Shown here: piece by piece, positions 5,709 through 20,000 of the stretch
Layout of the letters: every line of letters starts with the position of its first letter
How positions within the stretch are numbered: position 1 is the stretch's first letter
Source of the DNA: Thelocarpon superellum
Lineage: Eukaryota
Direction: 5' to 3'
DNA: 20,000 nt
NCBI GenBank assembly: GCA_026025795.1
Contig: JAPEUG010000049.1
Span: forward strand, 47,558 to 67,557
The notes under the pieces: generated by a model
Database searches by the model: none
Told to the model about the DNA's origin: nothing
The model's input: only the letters and a program-made list of their open reading frames with translations
Made by a program: the position numbers and the translations under genes

Positions 5709-7322
5709 CTAGTCCACTCTCCTTTCCCGACCCCAGACCTCATCCGCATCCCGCTTGCCCTTGGTCTCGGGCACCAACCACCAGACAAAGGCGAAGAAGA
5801 AGGCGGCCAGGCCTGCAAACACATAGTAAACCCGTCCTCGACCGAGAGCCGTGTTGAGCACGGGGAAGAACTGGGCGACCAGGAAGGTGGCGGACCAGTT
5901 GGCCACCAGGGCCCAGCTCTGGGTCGCGCCAACAGCCTCCTGGCCTACCAGTTCACTCGCTAGGATGAACGGCACCGGACCCAGTCCGACGGCAAACGAG
6001 GCGACAAACAGCACGGTGGCGATGGCGGAGAGGATGGGAATGGCGAGGAAGATGGAGATGGCGAGGAGCAACGCGTTCAACCCCATGCCGGCGATGGACA
6101 GGAGGAGACAGACCTTCCGGCCGAGACGGTCCGCCAACGGCGCACAGATGATCGTCGTCACCAGGTTCATGGCCGAGACGAAGACGGTTAGGAGGGCAGA
6201 GGTGGTGGGAAGGAGCTCGGACAGCAGATCGACCGAGTACATGACGATGCTGTTGATCCCGCAGAGCTGCTGCGCCAGCATGACCCCGACCACGGCGATG
6301 ATGGCCGGGCGGTAGAGGGGGATGCGGAGGACGTCGAGGACGCCCACGTGGCCGGTAGCGGCAGAGGCGCTGTCCATGTTCTCGCTCCCCCGACGCGACG
6401 TGCCCGGCTGCGGGGCTAAGAGGGCCTCTTCTTCGACTGCGGCGAATCAGCATGTGTTCCCCTAGCGCACAGGGTCAGTCCACTCACTTGGATCATCTCC
6501 AGTCGCTCCGATACCCCCTCCCCACGCTTGCACCTCCGCCTCAATATTGCCTCGCTCCCCACGAATCCTCTTCAAGAGACGCCGGGCCGCGAGCGCCTTG
6601 CCATGTGCGCCGAGCCACTGCGGGCTCTCCGACGCCCCGAAGAGGCCGAGGAACTGCGCGAAACCGATGAAGCCACCCACGGCGAGCACGATCCGCCAGA
6701 GCTGGCCTCGGCTCAGAAAGTAGCCCAGCAGCTGGGCGATCAAGATGCCGACGTTGATCATGACCTGGGTCAGGGCGCCGAAGAGACCTTTTCCGTCGGG
6801 TGGGGCGATCTCGGACACGTAGACGGGGACGATGACCAGGGCTGCGCCGGAGCCGATGCCCGACAGCACGCGACCCAGAGCAAGAACGGGGATGTTGGGC
6901 GCGAAGGCCTCGAACACGGGACCGAGGGTGTGGAAGACGGTGGTCAGTCGCATCGTCTGGAGACGTCCGTAACGGGTGGAACATGGTCCGGCGGCCAAGG
7001 CGCCCAGCACGCCGCCCAAGGTATAGATGGACGACACTAAGCCGAATTCCGCCGGGGTCATGGAAATGCACTGCGGCAAGAAGGAGAGTCCATAGGTCAC
7101 AATCTCCCTCTTCTTGCACGTAATGACGGCTTGGGGGGCGTTGAGCTCAGCCTGAGCATCGCGACGTCAGTGGACGAGCGTGAACTGGGCAGTCATGTGT
7201 GGGCCACCGACCAAATGGTAGCCAAACTGCAGTGGCCCGGTCGTGGCGACCAGGACGAGAAAGAGGAGATATGCCGTGATGCCCTTCGTCGTGGTGTCGC
7301 CGCTGTCCCTCCGAGTGACCAT
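5709..7322 (-). CDS. MFS sugar-porter family transporter (resembles vacuolar Vps73/YBR241C-type); exons 7322..7212, 7151..6488, 6436..5709
   Basis: Introns 7211..7152 (GTCGGT...CTGAC...CAG) and 6487..6437 (GTGAGT...CTGAT...CAG) keep the frame. Motifs include GPLQFGYHLAELNAPQ, RYGR, GRVLSGIGSG, VPVYVSEIAP, ESPQWL, QQLCGINSIVMYS, DRLGRK, GLGPVPF and VPETKG. Confidence 0.92.
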
Positions 7323-7992: not shown

Positions 7993-9516
7993 ATGAGCTT
8001 GACCAACCCGCCGTCGGCGGCGGCCAGCGGGCCTCCGTCCGCGGGCAACAACACCTCCAAGGTCGCCGCGGCTTCTTCGGCGTCTACTCGCGACCTGAAG
8101 CGTAGCGTGCAGGCTGCCTTTGATGGTAGGTGCTCCTCTCTTACCTCGGCGTTTCGGCGTGCGCACCACCCTGCAATGTCGACGCCTGGCTGACCTCGGC
8201 GGCAGACCCTTACGACGGCAAGAAGATGCCGGGCAATGGCTACATGAGCAAGGTCCGGGTGAATGAGCGCTACAAGGTGATTGGATTCATCAGCAGTGGC
8301 ACCTATGGACGCGTGTACAAGGCCGTGGGCCGTAATGGGCAGACGGGGGAATTCGCGATCAAAAAGTGAGGCCCGTCCGCGGTGAGGGTGCACGTCGTGG
8401 CTTCGGTGCCGGCGTGGCTGTACCGGTGGCTGATGCTTGTCGCGACGCAGATTCAAGCCGGACAAAGAGGGCGAGGTGATTCAGTACACGGGCATCTCAC
8501 AGTCGGCGTGTCGGGAGATGGCGCTCTGTTCGGAGCTGTCGCATTGCAACATCATCCACCTGGTGGAAATCATCCTGGAAGACAAATGCATCTTCATGGT
8601 GTTTGAGTACGCCGAGTACGATCTCCTACAGATCATCCACCACCACACGCAGCCGACGCGACACCCGATCCCGGCGCCGACGGTCAAGAGCATGCTCTAT
8701 CAACTGCTCAATGGCCTGCTGTACCTGCACAGCAACTGGGTGCTCCACCGCGACTTGAAGCCGGCCAACATCATGGTGACGAGCAGCGGGGAGGTGAAGA
8801 TTGGGGATCTGGGGTTGGCGCGTCTGTTCTGGAAGCCGCTGCATTCGCTGTACAACGGCGACAAGGTGGTGGTGACGATCTGGTATCGGGCGCCGGAGCT
8901 GCTGCTGGGGAGCAAGCATTACACGCCGGCCGTGGATCTGTGGGCGGTGGGATGCATCTTTGCGGAGCTGCTGAGCCTTCGGCCCATCTTCAAGGGCGAG
9001 GAGGCGAAGATGGATAGCCACAAGAAGACGGTGCCCTTTCAGCGGCATCAGGTGCAAAAGATCGTGGATATTTTGGGCATGCCGACCAAGGACCGCTGGC
9101 CCAACCTGATCTCCCAGCCGGAGTACGGGCAACTGCAGGGGTTGAGTACGTCGGCCACGGCGCGGGCGTCGCTGGAGAGTTGGTACAAGTCCACACTGCA
9201 GAACAACCAGTACACCTCGTCCGACCCCGAGGCCTCGCCGGGTCCGGAGGGCTATCATCTGTTGGCCGGGCTGCTCGAGTACGATCCGGAGAAACGATTG
9301 ACTGCGAGCCAGGCCCTGCAACACCCATACTTCACGGCCAACGGCGACAAGGTCAGTGGCAATTGTTTTGAGGGGATGAAGATGGAGTATCCCAAGCGAC
9401 GAGTCAGTCAGGACGACAATGGCATTGGGACGGGAAGTCTGCCGGGGACCAAACGATCTGGGCTGCCTGATGATTCTATGGCTGGCCGGCCAACGAAGCG
9501 ACTCAAGGAGGGGTAG
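7993..9516 (+). CDS. SSN3: Mediator kinase Ssn3/Srb10/CDK8; exons 7993..8125, 8206..8365, 8451..9516
   Basis: Introns 8126..8205 and 8366..8450 (GT-AG with GCTGAC/GCTGAT branch sites). CDK8-specific motifs [53 protein letters not shown] and [17 protein letters not shown] are present. The first exon is less certain than the rest. Confidence 0.95.
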
Positions 9517-10476: not shown

Positions 10477-11866
10477 ATGGCCAGCCCACGATATGAATCC
10501 GATGACGTCGACGTCTCGCCCTTGGGCCAGCCGTTGCCCTTTCCCTTCTCTGGACAAACGGCGAAGAACCGCTTCCTCAAGGCGGCCATGACGGAGCGTC
10601 TGTCGTCGTGGGACCCGCAGAAGCTCGAGGCGCGCGGAATCCCATCCAAGGGCCTCATCAACGCCTTCAAGCGATGGGGCGAGGGCGGATTCGGCGTGAT
10701 CCTGACCGGCAACACGATGATCGAGTACGACCAGCTGGAGGCCCCGGGCAACCCCATCATTCCACGAGGTGCCCCCTTTTCCGGCGAGCGATTCGAGGCC
10801 TTTGCCGAGCTGGCCCGCCAGTCCAAGAAGCATGGCTCCTTGATCATCTCGCAGATCAGCCATCCCGGCCGACAGGTACAAGACGCCGTGCAGCCGGATC
10901 CCGTCAGCGCGTCGGATGTGCGGTTGGAAGGTACGCTGGTGAGGGACGGGCCTGGACTTTGACCCTGCTAACTAGACAGGCAACGTGATGGGCATGACCT
11001 TTGCCAAACCCCACGCGGCCACGTCGGAAGAGATCAAGAACATCATCGAAGGATTTGCCCACGCGGCCGAGTATCTGCACCGGGCCGGATATGACGGCAT
11101 CGAGCTGCACGGCGCGCACGGGTACCTCCTCTCGCAGTTCCTCTCGCCCACCACGAACCAGCGAACGGACCAATACGGCGGGTCGCTGGCGAACCGATCA
11201 CGGCTCATCATGGAGATCGCGCAAGCAATCCGAGAACGCGTGCCGCAGAGCTTCATCCTCTCGATCAAGATCAACTCGGTCGAGTTCCAAGACAAGGGCT
11301 TCAACCCGGAGGAATGCCGCGAGCTGTGCCGCGAACTCGAAGCTAACCGGTTCGACTTCGTCGAACTCTCAGGCGGCACGTACGAATCGCTCGCCTTTGC
11401 GCACAAGCGCGAATCGACTAAAAAGCGCGAGGCTTTCTTCCTCGACTTTGCCGAGACCATCGCGCCCGCGCTCAAGGAGACCAAAATCTACATCACTGGC
11501 GGCTTCAAGACGGCCGGCGCGATGGTGCACGCGCTGCAGACCGTGCACGGTGTCGGGCTCGCGCGGCCGTCCACGCTCGAGCCAAGCTTCCCCAATGATA
11601 TCTTGGCGGGGACCGTGACAGGCGCCATCAAGCAGCGCCTGGACGAGAACAACTTTGGCTTGACCAACGTCGCGGCGGGCACGCAGATTCGCCAACTTGC
11701 ACGAGACCAGCAGCCGGTCGATCTGTCGAACGAGGAGAATGTGAAGGGATTCATGGACGATATGGGTAAATGGGGTGAGGCAATGGGTAAGGACAAGGAG
11801 CATAAGATGTATGGATATGTGGATTTGTCCGCCCAGCCGGTGCCTTACCGAGTGGCTACGTCGTAG
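10477..11866 (+). CDS. NADH:flavin oxidoreductase (Old Yellow Enzyme family); exons 10477..10930, 10980..11866
   Basis: Intron 10931..10979 (GTACGC...GCTAAC...CAG). Motifs include KNRFLKAAMTE, QISHPGRQ, AGYDGIELHGAHGYLLSQFLSPTTNQRTDQYGGSLANRSR and DFVELSGGTYE. Confidence 0.94.
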
Positions 11867-11965: not shown

Positions 11966-13143
11966 TCAGCCCAAGGCAATCAACCCCCTCAGCAGGGCAA
12001 CACCGGCCAGGACGGGATCCACGACACGAATCCGTTGTGCCCCTTCCAGCCCCAGCACGGCCACACACCCCTCTCGCACCGCTTCTTGCATCCCGCTCAT
12101 GCCTGCACAGCCAAGATTGATGACCGTGAGGGTGTCGTCAACATTGTCCCCTGTAGAGATGGTATCGGGGTCGGTGTCGGCGAAGGCTCCATCAGTGCTG
12201 CTGGCCTTGGTAGGTGTCCTCGTGAGGAGTCGAACCGTAGCATCCCTCAACCTCCGTCGCACCTCAGCAGATGGTAAACTGTGCAACTCCGCTGCCGAGA
12301 GGCCCGTGGTCGACACACCCGCGAAGACGGCGCTCGGTCCCGTTCTTACAGTAGCCGCAGCAGGGTCAATGGTGGTGCTGGTGCTCGTGGGGGTAGCAGT
12401 GGACGCGGACGTGGACGTGGACGTGGACACGGTGGCGCTTAGCTCCGTCCCAAGCATCCCCCCCACGCCCTTCGTCAGCAACGCCTCCCACACCCTCCCC
12501 GTCGAGACGATTCCGAATCTCTCGCCGGGAAGGAGGCAGTGCAGACTCGTGGTCACGCTCGCTTCGAAGATGCCCATCACGACAGGGACGGGACTCGTCA
12601 CCTTCACCTCTTCTCCTTCCCCCTCCCCTTCTCCCTTCCTCTTTTCCTCGATGGATCGATCCTTGTACTCTCTCAGGTAGCGCCGTAGCGACACAACAAG
12701 CGGGTGGACGGAATAACACGCGATCAAGACGCCCTGGTGAAAACGGAGCAGCGGGAGTAAGAGCGGGTAGCACACTGCTGCGCTCCGTGCTGCGTCGGTG
12801 TCGTCGTCGATGCTGACGGGTGATGCGGGCGGTGCCGTGAAATAGGTGTAGGCTGTCTAGTAATTTGAAGGGAGATGATTAATTCCAGTTGGTACGGGCT
12901 GCACTGACTACACGTGTGTGCCCAATTGCGACAGTATACCATGAGACTGGTTCGTACGAATAAAGGGTAGGAGATGGCGCAAGCACGGGAAGAAAGAACA
13001 GAGAAAGAACGAGAGAGAAGGAAACTCACGTCTGAATATCCAAGACCGGATATCAACGGTTTCAATGCTTCTGTCATTGACTGAGACGAGTTGGGATTCA
13101 CAATGAGAATGTTATACCTGGGGGGATCTTTTGAAGGTGTCAT
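11966..13143 (-). CDS. DCG1-like Asp/Glu/hydantoin racemase family protein; exons 13143..13030, 12856..11966
   Basis: Intron 13029..12857 (GTGAGT...TAG) joins ILIVNPNSSQSMT to YFTAP...VLIACYSVHPLV...GIFEASV...FGIVSTGRVWE...LGCAGMSGM...VVDPV. Both racemase Cys motifs (ACY, GCAGM) are present. Confidence 0.88.
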
Positions 13144-16414: not shown

Positions 16415-18239
16415 TCACGGGAACAGCTTGTGCTCGAGCGTCATGTCGGATTCCGGCTGCAGTCCGACGCAGGCGCGGAAGATGTTCGTCAGTGCGTTCC
16501 GCTGCTTGGCCAGGGCGTTGACGACCGGCGTGCCCGGCGGAGTCAGGGGGGCCTGGGGAGGAGCGTCAGAAGGGAAGGAGAGAGAGGGGTTGACGGAGGA
16601 AAAGCGAAGGAGGGTCGATTGCCCACCTTCAGCATGTAGCTGAGGATGCTAAGGACGCTGTGGAACCCCTTGTAGCCCTTGGAAGGCACGCCGTCCGTCG
16701 CGCTGACTTTCCACGAGATACGCGTCATCATCTCCGCGATGAGCACCAGGTCGATGATCAGTGGCGAGGCCAGGAGAGAGTCCTCGCACACGTTGAAGAG
16801 CCTAACGACCGTCAGCGGTGCGGGCCAGGCCCCGGCGAGCTCAAGACGTACGAGATGGTCTGGTGCCCGCCCATGAAGATCTCGGCGTAGTACTCGTCCA
16901 GCGCCCGCTTGTTGTCGCCCACCGCCGGCATGTACTTGATGACGACGGTGTGGTCCGGGTGTTCGCCCTTCTGGTACAGGACCGAGTTGGCCTCGACCAT
17001 GTCGTCGACCACGTTGGACTTGGAGATCTCCTTGGACCGGAATTGCCGGTGCGAGCTCAGGTTCTTGCCGTCGTTGTTGCCCAGATGGTTGTAGCTGGCG
17101 ATCGACGTGAGCTTGATGCCGGCGTTGATGAGAAAGTCCACCAGGGCCGACTTCATCTTCGTCTGGCCCGACTTGAAGTCATCGCCGCCGATAAAGGCGC
17201 CGTGTTGCTCCGCCAGCTGGATCGCCCCAGGCACAAAGGTGTTCTGCGGAGACCCGTTGATGTACGGAGCGCCTTCAAGGATGCACGCCACCGCGAAGAC
17301 GGTCGACGGCGCAATCTCGGCGTGGCCTTCGCGGATCGCCTTCAAGAGGTGGTCGGCGGTGTCGTTGACGCCGTCAATGAGATCCGCGTAACGCTCGGTG
17401 TTGGCCGTCCATTGCACAATGACCTTGTCGAGACCGTGCTGCGCCTGGAAGTTGCTGTGACCAATCATGAGCATCTCAGCCGTCTGCAGCCGGAAGAGGG
17501 GGGGACCCGCCCCCACCTACCGAATGTCCTCGCGAATCTGCTCGACGTGCTGCCACGACGCCGACTGACCCTCCAGCACATTGTCCGCACGATCCTCCTG
17601 GTTGGCGGCGATGAAGTCGGGATAGTACGGACTGGGAAGGGGTTTCATCTGTGCCATCTCCGCCCACACCAGCTTCTTCAGCGTCGGCTCCAAGACCATG
17701 GCGCGGTCCATGGCCTCGGCGAGGTTCATGCTGCTGATGTCCCACCCCCCAATGACCAGGTCATTCGGGTGGACCATGGGCAGGACGTCATGGAAGGGGA
17801 TGTTGATCTCCTGCTCCGTCTCCACGTCCGTGCCGAGCTTCATCGTCGAGCCCATGACCACGGAGCCGTAGTAGTTGGCCGCGCGCGGCCCCTCGCGCGT
17901 GTCCCAGGTCAGCTTCTGCCGGTTGGCAATGATGCCGGCCGTGACCGTCGTGCCGTTGTTTCCCCCCAGACCCACCAGCATCATCCCGACCTTGCCCACC
18001 CTACGGTCTACTTTGAAGTCGAACACGCTCTCCTTCGGGGTGGCTACATATTTGCCGTCGGCACCGAGACGCACCGAGGTCGTGCGATAGGTGTATTTGC
18101 TCTGGATCTCCTCCGCCGTATAGACCACATTCGGCGAATCTACGGTGAAGAGCGACGGCGTGCCGGTCGAAGGCGAGGTCGAGGTCGGAGGTTTGTGATC
18201 ATTCGCGGAGGAGTGGTCCGTTTGCGCGTGCGGAGCCAT
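16415..18239 (-). CDS. INO1: myo-Inositol-1-phosphate (inositol-3-phosphate) synthase; exons 18239..17521, 17454..16852, 16801..16627, 16552..16415
   Basis: Three GT-AG introns (17520..17455, 16851..16802, 16626..16553) give a continuous protein. MIPS motifs include [68 protein letters not shown] and a C-terminal LEHKLFP. Confidence 0.97.
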
Positions 18240-18266
18240 AGTGTCGGTATCGGTGACGTGAATCCC

Positions 18267-18495
18267 TTATCGCGTGAACGGTGCGTCAGATGCCCCTCCT
18301 CGAGCGGAAGACCGGCGGCCTCCAGCGAAGGGATGGTGGACGCTGTACAAGAAGGGGCAGCGTCAGTAGATGGCATCGACAGGTGCAAGACTGCAGGTTT
18401 CCAGCCGGCTGTCGACAGAAGAAGTGAGGGGCAGCTATAGTGGGGCAGCTAGTGTGGGGCATCAGGTCTTACGAGTTGAGAAGATTGGAAAACGT
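18267..18495 (-). CDS. Spliced, non-AUG (ACG) upstream ORF in the INO1 leader, 32 aa: MFSNLLNSVHHPFAGGRRSSARGGASDAPFTR; exons 18495..18473, 18342..18267
   Basis: The ACG has A at -3 (TTCAAG-ACG). The frame is continuous across the leader intron (TC|C) and ends at TAA 18269..18267, 27 nt before the INO1 ATG. Translation is inferred, not shown. Confidence 0.62.
18343..18472 (-). other. 130-nt spliceosomal intron in the INO1 5' leader
   Basis: Donor GTAAGA at 18472, branch TACTGAC at 18368..18362, pyrimidine tract and TACAG acceptor ending at 18343. Confidence 0.8.
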
Positions 18496-20000
18496 CTTGA
18501 AGGCTTGGGTGACCGTGGCACGACCCACGATCTGGCTATGGTATGTAGGTGGAGTAAGAATGAATTCGTGGTGTGACGATCAAGGGTCGACTGATGGCTA
18601 GAACGACTTCCGATTCGATTCAAATCAATGTCGAGTGATACCAAAGGCGGAGGGTTTAGTGGGATCCCTGGGCAGGATCTTGGTGGGGGCTCGCCGCCTA
18701 GACCCAACTCATCCCCCTAGAAACGGACTAGGCGCGTGGCTGACACGAGCCATTTCTTAGCCTTGGGACTGCGTTTAGTCTCAAGTCCCATGCCGGAGCG
18801 CCTCTAGCGACCAGGCCCATATCGTGATCGGCCGTGGACGAACCATGAAAGTGTTCTGTTGTGAAGCTGCTCCATAGACAATCCATTTTGATATCTACAT
18901 CTAGCTGTTCGTCTGCATCAAAATACCTCAACCTGTTATCTTTTACGCCACCTGACCGATTTGTTCATGCTCACTGTCACACGACGGAGTGGGGCCTCTA
19001 CAGATCTCCCCACATCTGCCGCCTGACATGCTCTCAGAAGACTCCGGCCTGCTTCGAGATTTCGAGGAAGAACTGATATTCGCCCTGGGGCCCCCCACAA
19101 TGTGCTATCATGTGGCTGGTACTGGTTCTGCATGGCTGGGCGGAGCACATTGGCATTCAACTGGTAGCGGTAATAGTAGAGGGGCCATCCTGCCTCTCGC
19201 AGGAGGCCATAAGTGTCGGCTTCGGCACGTAGAATGGAGCTGATGAGCAGCGGTCTATGAGCTCTCAAAGGCTTCCATGCGGCGCAATACATAGCCGGGC
19301 GGAGTGGCGTCAAGTGCGAGCGGGTCCGTCCAGAAGCGCACACGCCGCCGTATCGATCATCGCAGCCACAGCGGAGCGCGTCCTCGGCGGCCGAAACGCG
19401 TTGAGGGCTTCCCCGGGTAGTTTCGGTAAGGCAGCACGCGAGCACCAGCATCTGCACCAGCCCCTCCCGGCATTATTATGCAAGGTGCCGGCAGGGGTGC
19501 CATGTCATCCCGTTCGCGGCCTCGACGGAGCACGCATACTCGCAGGAGATTGGAGACACTTCCGCGTATTGGCACTAGCAACCACACGGTCGCATTGCTC
19601 CCTTCGACTTATCCGCTGTAGCCGTTTGCGCCTCCCCTCAAGGTCAAATATTTCCATTTTGATGAAGTTCAATGGCCAGGGAACAATTGCGACTCTTCAG
19701 ACGAGCAGCATTACGACTCAGATCATCAGCTCTTCCATCCTTCCTTTGTCCTGTCAAGTCACTCCGATTGGAGCGCTCCGCACCACGTCCGGCAGGAGTC
19801 TCAATCAGTTCACTGTTCTCAGGTAGATTTAGATGTGGTAACGGCAAGCCGCACCGTCGGTGACGCGATCCACTCGTCTGAGCACGACCGTGCCTTGTCC
19901 CGATCGCAACTTTCCAGACCGCCCGCTCCAACATGTCAAGTTCGTCTCGTGCAGATTCTGACACAAACGCAAGTACTCCTTGTTAGCTAGGTGCAGGTAC

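Follow-up and report, generated by a model that had tools for sequence, protein, structure and literature searches.

The leader of INO1, the myo-inositol-1-phosphate synthase gene, of Thelocarpon superellum carries a short upstream open reading frame (uORF) that begins at a near-cognate ACG codon and is divided by an intron, and comparison with other fungi supports the conclusion that this is a real, conserved coding frame whose peptide is under purifying selection. This comparative evidence makes a role of the uORF in translational control very likely, and the uORF probably acts as a translated, peptide-dependent cis-regulator of INO1. With moderate confidence, we further interpret it as a conserved-peptide uORF (an 'upstream conserved coding region') that would control INO1 through its nascent peptide, with inositol or a close derivative as the most likely signal; the narrower proposition that inositol itself is the signal is put forward tentatively.

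The uORF in the INO1 leader of T. superellum

INO1 carries out the committed step of inositol synthesis, which leads to phosphatidylinositol, sphingolipids, GPI anchors and inositol phosphates. In the window, that is, the whole stretch of 20,000 nt of T. superellum DNA that was analysed, its start codon lies at 18239 on the minus strand. The product matched Pfam PF07994 (E 2.8e-61) and PF01658, and a 240-aa exon-1 query was 100% identical to the 544-aa 'MAG: Myo-inositol-1-phosphate synthase [Thelocarpon superellum]' (P0001), which was also compared with the window by tblastn in delimiting the coding sequence. The features of the locus are as follows.

16415..18239, minus strand: INO1 (myo-inositol-1-phosphate synthase) coding sequence, from Pfam, protein identity, tblastn and sequence
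17455-17520, 16802-16851 and 16553-16626, minus strand: the three INO1 introns, read by eye
18240..18266, minus strand: spacer from the uORF stop to the INO1 AUG, 27 nt
18267..18342, minus strand: uORF exon 2, 76 nt, with the third base of the Ser-8 codon, codons 9-32 and the stop TAA (18269-18267)
18343..18472, minus strand: leader intron, 130 nt, phase 2 within the Ser-8 codon, with the 5' splice site GTAAGA from 18472, the branch-like CTACTGAC near 18368 and the 3' CAG ending at 18343
18473..18495, minus strand: uORF exon 1, 23 nt, in which the start codon is followed by six complete codons and by bases 1 and 2 of the Ser-8 codon
18493..18495, minus strand: near-cognate uORF start codon ACG, preceded by AAG, with A at -3
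18496..18503, minus strand: initiation context from -8 to -1, conserved (C at -4, A at -3, A at -2), from the entropy profile
18514..18516, minus strand: second in-frame ACG, in the context GCC-ACG-G, seven codons upstream, from the sequence

The original prediction had described a 130-nt leader intron and, across it, a 32-codon frame from the ACG at 18495. Both were confirmed: the intron has GT..AG ends on the minus strand, and its removal leaves 32 sense codons followed by TAA, encoding the peptide exactly as first written, in which residue 1 would be Met and not Thr were the ACG read by initiator tRNA. The spliced leader was likewise found to be free of AUG as claimed, and the ATG-free stretch reaches beyond the limit of ~18600 first given, the nearest ATG 5' of INO1 being at 18712, which in the spliced leader is 343 nt from the INO1 start codon. 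The ATGs at 18462 and 18376 both lie within the intron. Homology suggests that in T. superellum the leader intron is spliced and the uORF is part of the INO1 mRNA, and it likewise points to the probable position of the transcription start. The second ACG is present and in frame as predicted but is not conserved in other loci: there is no peptide conservation 5' of the start position, and in seven other sequences an in-frame stop confines any upstream extension to 0-8 codons. The codon was therefore rejected as a conserved start, and we consider its use as a functional start improbable.

Conservation of the peptide, its start codon and its intron

A 32-codon frame in GC-rich DNA is not significant alone; the significance of the uORF comes from comparison with other loci. 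A scan with a 24-protein alignment yielded a set of 80 metagenome loci, and the same frame was present upstream of INO1 in 27 of them, namely in 25 of the 31 whose INO1 match starts from residue 1 and in two more, L030 and L043, the latter with an INO1 no more than 67% identical to any among the 120 proteins listed. In one further residue-1 locus (L041) the uORF is partial at the contig edge. When the plus strand of all 80 loci was scanned for the peptide motif, matches were found only directly upstream of INO1. The uORF is dispensable in some fungi, being absent or remodelled in some lineages: three loci (L032, L033 and L034), each with 800 nt of upstream sequence, lack the motif, and the uORF is remodelled in L003, whose INO1 is 95-96% identical to a Podospora-like INO1. 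The original prediction had called for a comparison of orthologous INO1 leaders, and in that comparison the amino acid sequence, the near-cognate start and the place and phase of the intron proved to be conserved. The length of the uORF is also kept within narrow bounds (14 sequences have 32 codons, 12 have 31 and one has 27), and the spacer between its stop and the INO1 AUG measures 18-85 nt (median 48, 27 sequences), with all three relative frames represented.

Substitutions in the uORF are frame-specific. Over the whole uORF, pN was 0.317 and pS 0.655 (ratio 0.48), with pN below pS in 276 of 276 pairs, compared with pN/pS values of 1.17 and 1.44 in the shifted frames of the same alignment. 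Within the core, codons 2-15, pN/pS fell to 0.277 (pN below pS in 348 of 351 pairs; shifted frames, 1.46 and 1.58), and the last third is under weak constraint (0.67); the pairs in these counts are phylogenetically non-independent, and pN is biased downward at motif positions by the gathering of part of the sequences with a peptide-motif regex. The entropy is three-periodic within the uORF frame, and stops interrupt the other two frames of the stretch in 11 of 24 and 19 of 24 sequences. Conservation is strongest at the N-terminal and middle residues (2-15), among which Leu-6, Ser-8 and His-10 are invariant. The peptide motif of exon 1 is conserved, with synonymous variation, and exon 2 contains two conserved blocks, His-His/Asn-Pro-Phe/Tyr and Gly-Gly-Ala-Ser-Asp.

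At the start position, the 27 non-redundant sequences have ACG in 22 cases, CTG in two, ATT in two and ATG in one, and never ACA, ACC or ACT; other conserved codons show free variation at their four-fold sites, with Ser-8 written by five codons and Pro-12 by four. The context of the start is conserved as well (of the 27 sequences, all have C at -4, 26 have A at -3 and 22 have A at -2), the single AUG-start version having T at -3, and upstream of -14 the entropy columns are near random, most at 1.7-2.0 bits. A near-cognate start in good context thus stands at the 5' edge of conservation, as in a conserved-peptide uORF (CPuORF) of the near-cognate type. The ATT starts belong to L011 and L029, in which, with the start placed at an ATT three codons upstream, the sequences again align without gaps and the junction is again 23 nt away; a start at the ACG/ACA three codons further in was rejected, since L029 has ACA there. 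Spliced leaders contain one ATG in 6210 nt, which is the start of the AUG-type uORF itself, and leader introns contain 44 in 2420 nt, with at least one in 18 of the 23 introns.

The leader intron occupies an identical place and phase in 23 of 23 intron-bearing non-redundant sequences, measures 48-168 nt, and in all 23 starts with GT and ends with AG. Together with the branch-like motif, the conserved position and the absence from transcript-like contigs, these are the properties of a spliceosomal intron. Four contigs (L002, L011, L014 and L043) are intron-less and cDNA-like; each carries an uninterrupted uORF and INO1 together, with an AUG-free leader reaching 57-114 nt upstream of the start, and their missing introns and mRNA-like sizes suggest that they are cDNA. 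Compared with genomic L029, cDNA-like L011 differs by ~54 nt exactly at the intron place, as does cDNA-like L014 from genomic L017 by ~59 nt. The Ser-8 codon that spans the intron reads AG/C in L030 and TC/N in the others (the slash marking the intron). Retention of the intron would produce an in-frame stop right after codon 8 in 16 of the 23 introns and not in the other seven; we rejected this stop as a designed feature, as it follows from the GTAAG/GTGAG splice consensus.

In an independent search, a profile built from the four cDNA-like peptides was run against 1.84 billion proteins, giving 44 matches at E<=1e-3, 35 of them with the full motif. In these 35 the C-terminus falls exactly at the uORF stop, in 34 of them at 31-32 residues past the start position, and all matched models share one stop, 27-32 residues beyond that position. 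The peptide forms the C-terminus of 'hypothetical proteins' in Aspergillus, Penicillium, Fusarium, Trichoderma, Podospora, Alternaria, a truffle and Lobosporangium, with Verticillium and Talaromyces also among the named matches; we take the named matches to represent Eurotiomycetes, Sordariomycetes, Leotiomycetes, Dothideomycetes and Pezizomycetes, together with Lobosporangium, a relative of Mortierella. The Lobosporangium match is a 27-residue form, which in L043 stands upstream of INO1. Ile occupies the start position in six of the 35 full-motif matches, five of them from named Eurotiales species. When 30 matches were looked up, 29 were annotated as an AUG-initiated 'hypothetical protein' of 44-178 aa, and 28 were NCBI entries with species names. 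The N-terminal parts of the annotated models share no conservation, and similarity begins at the near-cognate position.

Proposed mechanism and competing explanations

We propose that most ribosomes scanning the spliced leader would miss the weak ACG and go on to translate INO1, while a minority would initiate there with Met and make the 32-residue peptide. Residues 2-15 of the nascent chain may then act inside the ribosome and cause slowing or arrest, either partway through the uORF or once the stop codon is reached, and the arrested ribosome would block those scanning behind it. Judged by its length, the uORF would hold about three ribosomes, so that a queue could put one ribosome over the ACG and thereby increase uORF initiation. 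The short spacer would make reinitiation at INO1 inefficient, and the net effect would be repression of INO1 synthesis. The effector would most likely be myo-inositol, which the pathway produces, or a compound closely derived from it, in which case INO1 would be under feedback control by its end product. Unlike arrest peptides whose critical residues adjoin the stall site, the INO1 uORF has its best-kept residues in the N-terminal and middle parts, which is compatible with more than one stall position.

The closest competing explanation retains a cis-acting uORF peptide but assigns it a signal other than inositol, such as glucose-6-phosphate, NAD, a phospholipid precursor, polyamines via eIF5A, or global start-codon stringency and eIF2 activity. 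The comparative evidence for a peptide-dependent uORF fits such a signal equally, the sequence names no ligand, and near-cognate starts are inherently sensitive to initiation-factor levels. However, even in very distant fungi the element accompanies a single gene, INO1, a pattern typical of pathway-specific feedback (as in GGP and AZIN1, discussed below), and a sensor of purely global conditions would have no need of a conserved peptide. We regard a non-inositol signal as unlikely, though it is the strongest of the alternatives. [quoted passage not shown]

It is considerably less probable that the peptide is released and then functions in trans as a micropeptide that might, for instance, bind to the synthase or to a regulator, with its site upstream of INO1 serving co-expression. 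Selection at the peptide level would be compatible with this, as would conservation of the N-terminal half, which is the first to leave the ribosome. Nevertheless, a weak near-cognate start is poorly suited to a stoichiometric product, 32 residues without obvious structure would be an improbable stable ligand, and the strict length, the depletion of AUG and the fixed site just 5' of the INO1 AUG suit cis control better.

Given that 29 of the 30 looked-up database matches are annotated in this way, the conserved block could also be read as belonging to an ordinary gene upstream of INO1, one that encodes a small protein starting at AUG and ends with this block as its C-terminal exon. This is very improbable: the unconserved N-termini of the models give way to similarity at the near-cognate position, every model ends at the same stop, seven loci have an in-frame stop just before the start position (0-8 codons), and the cDNA-like leaders are without any AUG upstream of INO1.

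We give still less credence to a non-coding element (a promoter or UAS site, a splicing enhancer or an RNA structure) in which the open frame is incidental. Conservation at the nucleotide level of the 8 nt before the start and of the exon around the 5' splice site would fit such an element, as would folding z-scores below -2 in six of 27 sequences; yet the mean z was -0.74 and that of the window 0.05, RNAalifold gave no consensus structure, and there was no Rfam match at E<=1. The substitution pattern (pN/pS 0.28-0.48 in frame against 1.2-1.6 in shifted frames), the three-periodic entropy, the TCN/AGY serine switch in L030 and the keeping of length despite a variable C-terminal sequence all argue for coding. 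Finally, although stop-free stretches of 32 codons are common in GC-rich DNA, a chance open frame is refuted by the profile search and by the comparative results, all of which, including the stops in the other two frames (11/24 and 19/24 sequences), are contrary to it.

Relation to known uORFs and significance

Among known systems, the CPuORF of plant GDP-L-galactose phosphorylase (GGP) is thought to be ACG-initiated, and changing this ACG to AUG strongly lowers main-ORF output, according to PMC6380273. Like that of GGP, the INO1 element encodes a conserved peptide ahead of an enzyme committed to a biosynthetic pathway, and its weak start would let most ribosomes pass. It differs in kingdom, gene and peptide and in the conserved intron that splits it; moreover, the GGP effector, ascorbate, has been established experimentally, whereas that of the INO1 uORF is a candidate. 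For the AZIN1 upstream conserved coding region, PMC11058473 describes an AUU start with rare initiation, a metabolite-dependent pause and a ribosome queue that raises uORF initiation. The AZIN1/ODC elements resemble the INO1 uORF in having a near-cognate start in a conserved coding uORF, and the ATT of L011 and L029 and the Ile matches belong to the same codon class. In contrast, INO1 is not of the ODC family, polyamines lie outside its pathway, and its uORF is short (31-32 codons) and most conserved in its N-terminal half; the AZIN1 pause motif Pro-Pro-Trp, which stands near the end of its conserved region, is absent from all 28 INO1 uORF peptides examined.

The arginine attenuator peptide (AAP) causes arginine-dependent stalling at its uORF stop. 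Like the AAP of Neurospora arg-2 and yeast CPA1, which is pathway-specific, the present element is a fungal uORF peptide upstream of a biosynthetic gene, but INO1 is not the small subunit of the arginine-specific carbamoyl-phosphate synthetase, the start is ACG rather than AUG, and the peptide is different; membership in the AAP family is excluded by the gene context alone. Within the inositol regulon itself, the yeast activator gene INO2 has an AUG-initiated uORF. That uORF sits in a transcription-factor mRNA, unlike the present one, which lies in the leader of INO1. The INO1 uORF is best classed as founding a new family of conserved-peptide uORFs that initiate at a near-cognate codon.

The original prediction had mentioned a possible earlier description of a conserved non-AUG uORF in fungal inl/INO1 leaders. 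This was not supported: no paper on a fungal INO1/inl uORF was found among the full texts searched, a collection with few subscription journals. The word 'inositol' does not occur in PMC5487733, which treats non-AUG initiation in Neurospora and names arg-2 as a uORF-containing transcript, or in PMC11550727 and PMC6380273.

These findings bear on both annotation and regulation. In current annotation the uORF is either overlooked or made part of spurious 'hypothetical proteins' whose N-termini are invented. In budding yeast, INO1 is controlled transcriptionally, and its regulation is a textbook case there; to our knowledge, little is understood about it in filamentous fungi. A bolder reading, which we consider doubtful, is that the leader encodes an ancient nascent-chain sensor, older than the Mucoromycota/Ascomycota split, which arrests the ribosome at high levels of inositol or of a lipid precursor derived from it, its signal being amplified by initiation at a near-cognate codon and by a queue of about three ribosomes; this peptide would then be the main control of inositol synthesis in filamentous fungi, replacing the Ino2/Ino4/Opi1 transcriptional circuit of budding yeast, and, if so, the first ribosome-arrest peptide sensing a polyol. 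Overall, the INO1 uORF would extend the short list of metabolite-linked non-AUG conserved-peptide uORFs by one family, and this deeply conserved near-cognate peptide uORF, found across model, industrial and plant- or human-associated moulds, provides a concrete candidate mechanism for the control of INO1 in filamentous fungi.

The INO1 leader in the window

On the minus strand of the window, INO1 starts with the ATG at 18239; its exon 1 matches Pfam PF07994 (E 2.8e-61), and the second exon has matches to PF07994 and PF01658. In a protein database search, the exon-1 translation was 100% identical to the 544-aa 'MAG: Myo-inositol-1-phosphate synthase [Thelocarpon superellum]', after which the best matches were ~76% identical. 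The genes and the elements of the leader are as follows.

Features of the window
5709-7166 (-): two neighbouring open frames of the sugar-transporter family (PF00083, E 1e-45 and 2e-40)
8434-9516 (+): protein kinase domain gene (PF00069)
10976-11866 (+): NADH:flavin oxidoreductase gene (PF00724)
11966-12856 (-): Asp/Glu/hydantoin racemase gene (PF01177)
16415-18239 (-): INO1 coding region with three introns (tblastn of the 544-aa T. superellum protein)
18269-18267 (-): TAA stop of the uORF, 27 nt from the INO1 ATG
18472-18343 (-): leader intron, 130 nt, with GTAAGA at its start, CTACTGAC near 18368 and a terminal CAG
18495-18493 (-): ACG start of the uORF, preceded by AAG

The sequence details of the leader described in the original prediction are all present: with the intron removed, the ACG opens a frame of 32 sense codons. 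The two ATGs closest to the INO1 start (18376 and 18462) both lie within the leader intron and the next one upstream is at 18712, so that the spliced leader is AUG-free for 343 nt. The second ACG that had been pointed out, at 18516, is also present in the window but has no counterpart in other loci. In GC-rich DNA, an open frame of 32 codons is no evidence when taken alone.

Upstream of INO1, the open frames at 18936-19472 (-) and 19233-19826 (+) had no Pfam matches and are probably not genes. The PF00083 family includes inositol transporters, and the sugar-transporter frames lie ~9 kb away from INO1. INO1 coding intron 2 (16802-16851, minus strand) begins GTACGT and is a phase 2 intron, inserted behind the TC of a Ser codon; that it shares this junction type with the leader intron is probably a coincidence.

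A conserved peptide upstream of INO1

When metagenomes were scanned using 24 aligned fungal INO1 proteins, 80 loci were obtained, in 31 of which the INO1 match starts at residue 1, with the common start Met-Ala-Pro-His-Ala. In genomic loci, upstream ATGs usually occur at a distance of 110-230 nt and are then missing over several hundred nt further out, and four short contigs have no upstream ATG. BLASTN revealed that locus L011 equals the genomic L029 minus ~54 nt, the gap lying 125-180 nt upstream of the ATG, and that L014 similarly lacks ~59 nt relative to L017. These differences make L011 and L014 look like assembled transcripts from which the leader intron has been removed; L002 and L043, judged by their mRNA-like length, also look like transcript assemblies. 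When the AUG-free leaders of L011, L014 and L002 were translated, each contained a frame with the peptide pattern of the window's spliced frame.

Using motif searches and splice reconstruction, we found a complete uORF in 25 of the 31 loci; in L041 the copy is cut by the contig edge, and no copy was found in L012 (58 nt of upstream sequence) or L019 (117 nt). A plus-strand scan of all 80 loci gave uORF matches only immediately upstream of INO1 and added two carriers, L030 and L043, the INO1 of the latter having a best identity of 67% among 120 listed proteins. Including the window, the comparison set comprises 28 sequences, of which 27 are non-redundant.

Across the 27 non-redundant sequences the uORF is 32 (14), 31 (12) or 27 (1) codons long and ends in TAA (23) or TAG (4). 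In 23/23 intron-bearing sequences the leader intron separates bases 2 and 3 of codon 8 (Ser-8) and comes after 23 nt of uORF; its length varies from 48 to 168 nt, with GT at every 5' end and CAG (18), TAG (4) or AAG (1) at the 3' end. The spacer from the uORF stop to the INO1 AUG measures 18-85 nt (median 48), and the uORFs take every one of the three possible frames with respect to INO1, which means that the uORF is not an N-terminal extension of INO1. The spliced leaders (last 270 nt or fewer) contain a single ATG in 6210 nt, which is the uORF start of L001, compared with 44 in 2420 nt of leader intron, where 18 of the 23 introns have at least one.

At its 5' edge the conserved block opens with ACG (22 sequences), CTG (two), ATT (two) or ATG (one); each of these codons is AUG or a single-base neighbour of AUG. 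No Thr codon other than ACG occurs at this position, though synonymous sites elsewhere are near saturation. The start is preceded by C at -4 in 27/27 sequences, A at -3 in 26/27 and A at -2 in 22/27; L001, the sole AUG version, has the sole T at -3 and a stop codon directly before its start. Seven sequences have an in-frame stop 0-8 codons before the start position. Five of these have no near-cognate codon in between, and hence no alternative start, and the other two have near-cognates only 6-7 codons upstream. This weak start, together with the depletion of AUG and the fixed position, fits poorly with a peptide that is released as a micropeptide and acts in trans.

Nei-Gojobori counts on the peptide alignment of 24 sequences gave, for the whole uORF, a pN of 0.317 and a pS of 0.655 (ratio 0.48), with pN below pS in 276/276 pairs, although the pairs are non-independent and pN is lowered at the positions of a peptide regex that helped to identify the loci. 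The shifted frames gave ratios of 1.17 (pN below pS in 65/276 pairs) and 1.44 (24/276); neither this control nor the independent profile search described below depends on the regex. Over codons 2-15, whose alignment is gap-free in all 27 sequences, the ratio was 0.277 (348/351 pairs), against 1.46 and 1.58 in the shifted frames, and in the C-terminal part, where the alignment contains gaps, it was 0.67. The best-conserved residues lie far from the stop codon. Upstream of -14 the column entropy is close to random (most columns 1.7-2.0 bits), and it is three-periodic from the start codon onward. Conserved residues are encoded by varied codons (five each for Leu-6 and Ser-8, four for Pro-12, three for Gly-15), and Ser-8 of L030 is AG|C across the intron versus TC|N in other sequences.

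A non-coding element, as an explanation of the conservation, is hard to reconcile with this frame-specific substitution pattern. Folding z-scores averaged -0.74 over the 27 sequences, with 6/27 below -2 and the window at 0.05; RNAalifold found no consensus structure, and Rfam gave no match at E<=1. Overall, the conservation of the peptide, the ACG and the intron's place and phase on which the original prediction had hinged is found among these leaders.

The exceptions indicate that the uORF can be lost. The INO1 of L003, 95-96% identical to Podospora-like proteins, has neither leader intron nor any coding intron, and upstream of its start (L003:2850-3010) lies a recognisable but altered uORF copy with ACA at the start position and two bases missing; another frame, ATT-started, overlaps the INO1 AUG. 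The locus resembles an intron-less gene copy that arose from spliced mRNA and in which the uORF has decayed or been remodelled. L034 keeps ACC-ACG, but a GTAAGT leader intron begins only 8 nt later and the conserved peptide is gone, a pattern suggesting that the peptide was lost secondarily while the intron stayed. Nothing recognisable was found in L032 and L033; for each of these last three loci, 800 nt of upstream sequence was searched.

Breadth among fungi

A profile of four uninterrupted peptides, searched against 1.84 billion representative proteins, gave 44 matches at E<=1e-3, six of them at E<=1e-10. The full motif is present in 35, every one of which ends exactly at the uORF stop; from start position to end they span 32 residues (23), 31 (11) or 27 (1), with Thr (29) or Ile (6) at the start position. 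Five further matches hold the exon 2 part only, behind different upstream sequence, and look like mis-spliced or intron-retained gene models; the remaining four are long repetitive proteins and look unrelated. Among 30 matches whose names were looked up, 28 are 'hypothetical' or 'uncharacterized' at NCBI, another is a 'hypothetical protein' at JGI, and the last is unnamed.

The matches P0121-P0159 and P0163 are 'hypothetical proteins' of 44-178 aa, in Aspergillus niger, Penicillium roqueforti, Fusarium oxysporum and Trichoderma asperellum, for example, in which the last 27-32 residues alone, the uORF, are conserved. They appear to be gene-model artefacts starting at unrelated upstream ATGs. 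Two observations contradict the view that the block belongs to an ordinary AUG-initiated small gene: the transcript-like leaders are AUG-free, and the database models have N-termini that are mutually dissimilar upstream of the start position.

The species named among the matches are A. niger, A. tubingensis, P. roqueforti, P. subrubescens, Thermoascus crustaceus, Paecilomyces variotii, Thermomyces lanuginosus, Talaromyces marneffei, two Claviceps species, Colletotrichum plurivorum, Podospora species, two Trichoderma species, Thermocarpiscus, Thermothelomyces, Humicola, F. oxysporum, Verticillium, Purpureocillium, Xylaria, Hyaloscypha, two Pseudogymnoascus isolates, Alternaria dauci, Plenodomus, the truffle relative Choiromyces venosus and Lobosporangium transversale, a Mortierella-group fungus. 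The Lobosporangium protein (P0146) has the 27-residue form and resembles L043:58-141, where 18 nt separate the peptide frame from an INO1 start; both have the N-terminal 13 residues found elsewhere and a lysine-rich tail. The occurrence of this short form in that fungus and in L043, with an INO1 at most 67% identical to the ascomycete proteins listed, hints that the uORF is older than the filamentous ascomycetes.

A proposed mechanism and its precedents

The comparison shows the anatomy of the uORF and the selection on it; its mechanism we infer from known systems. The uORF of plant GDP-L-galactose phosphorylase (GGP), which like the INO1 uORF lies upstream of a biosynthetic gene, is reported to start at ACG, and exchanging this ACG for AUG strongly lowers GGP output (PMC6380273). 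The upstream conserved coding region of antizyme inhibitor (AZIN1) starts at AUU and is rarely translated, and at high polyamines a ribosome pauses within it and the queue behind raises initiation at the weak start (PMC11058473).

We posit that most ribosomes would pass the ACG and go on to translate INO1, and that initiation at the ACG by the remaining few would yield the peptide. Its conserved residues 2-15 would then halt the ribosome from within the exit tunnel or from the tunnel mouth. The arrest would probably be triggered by the pathway product, inositol being the natural guess for the effector; together with the short spacer, the arrested ribosome would keep others off the INO1 AUG. 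Because 31-32 codons are fixed despite the variable C-terminal sequence, the start-to-stop distance is suggested to matter: if each ribosome covers ~10 codons, stalling at the stop with a queue behind it would, by arithmetic only, put the P site of a following ribosome at about codon 1-2.

We found no description of a uORF in fungal INO1 in the full-text literature, mostly without subscription journals, nor of the conserved non-AUG uORF that the original prediction mentioned for fungal inl/INO1 leaders; the word 'inositol' is absent from a Neurospora non-AUG study (PMC5487733) and from a 2024 review of microbial uORFs (PMC11550727). On present evidence, the INO1 uORF is a new family among the near-cognate-initiated, conserved-peptide uORFs upstream of biosynthetic genes, and one that annotation pipelines appear to have turned into spurious small proteins.
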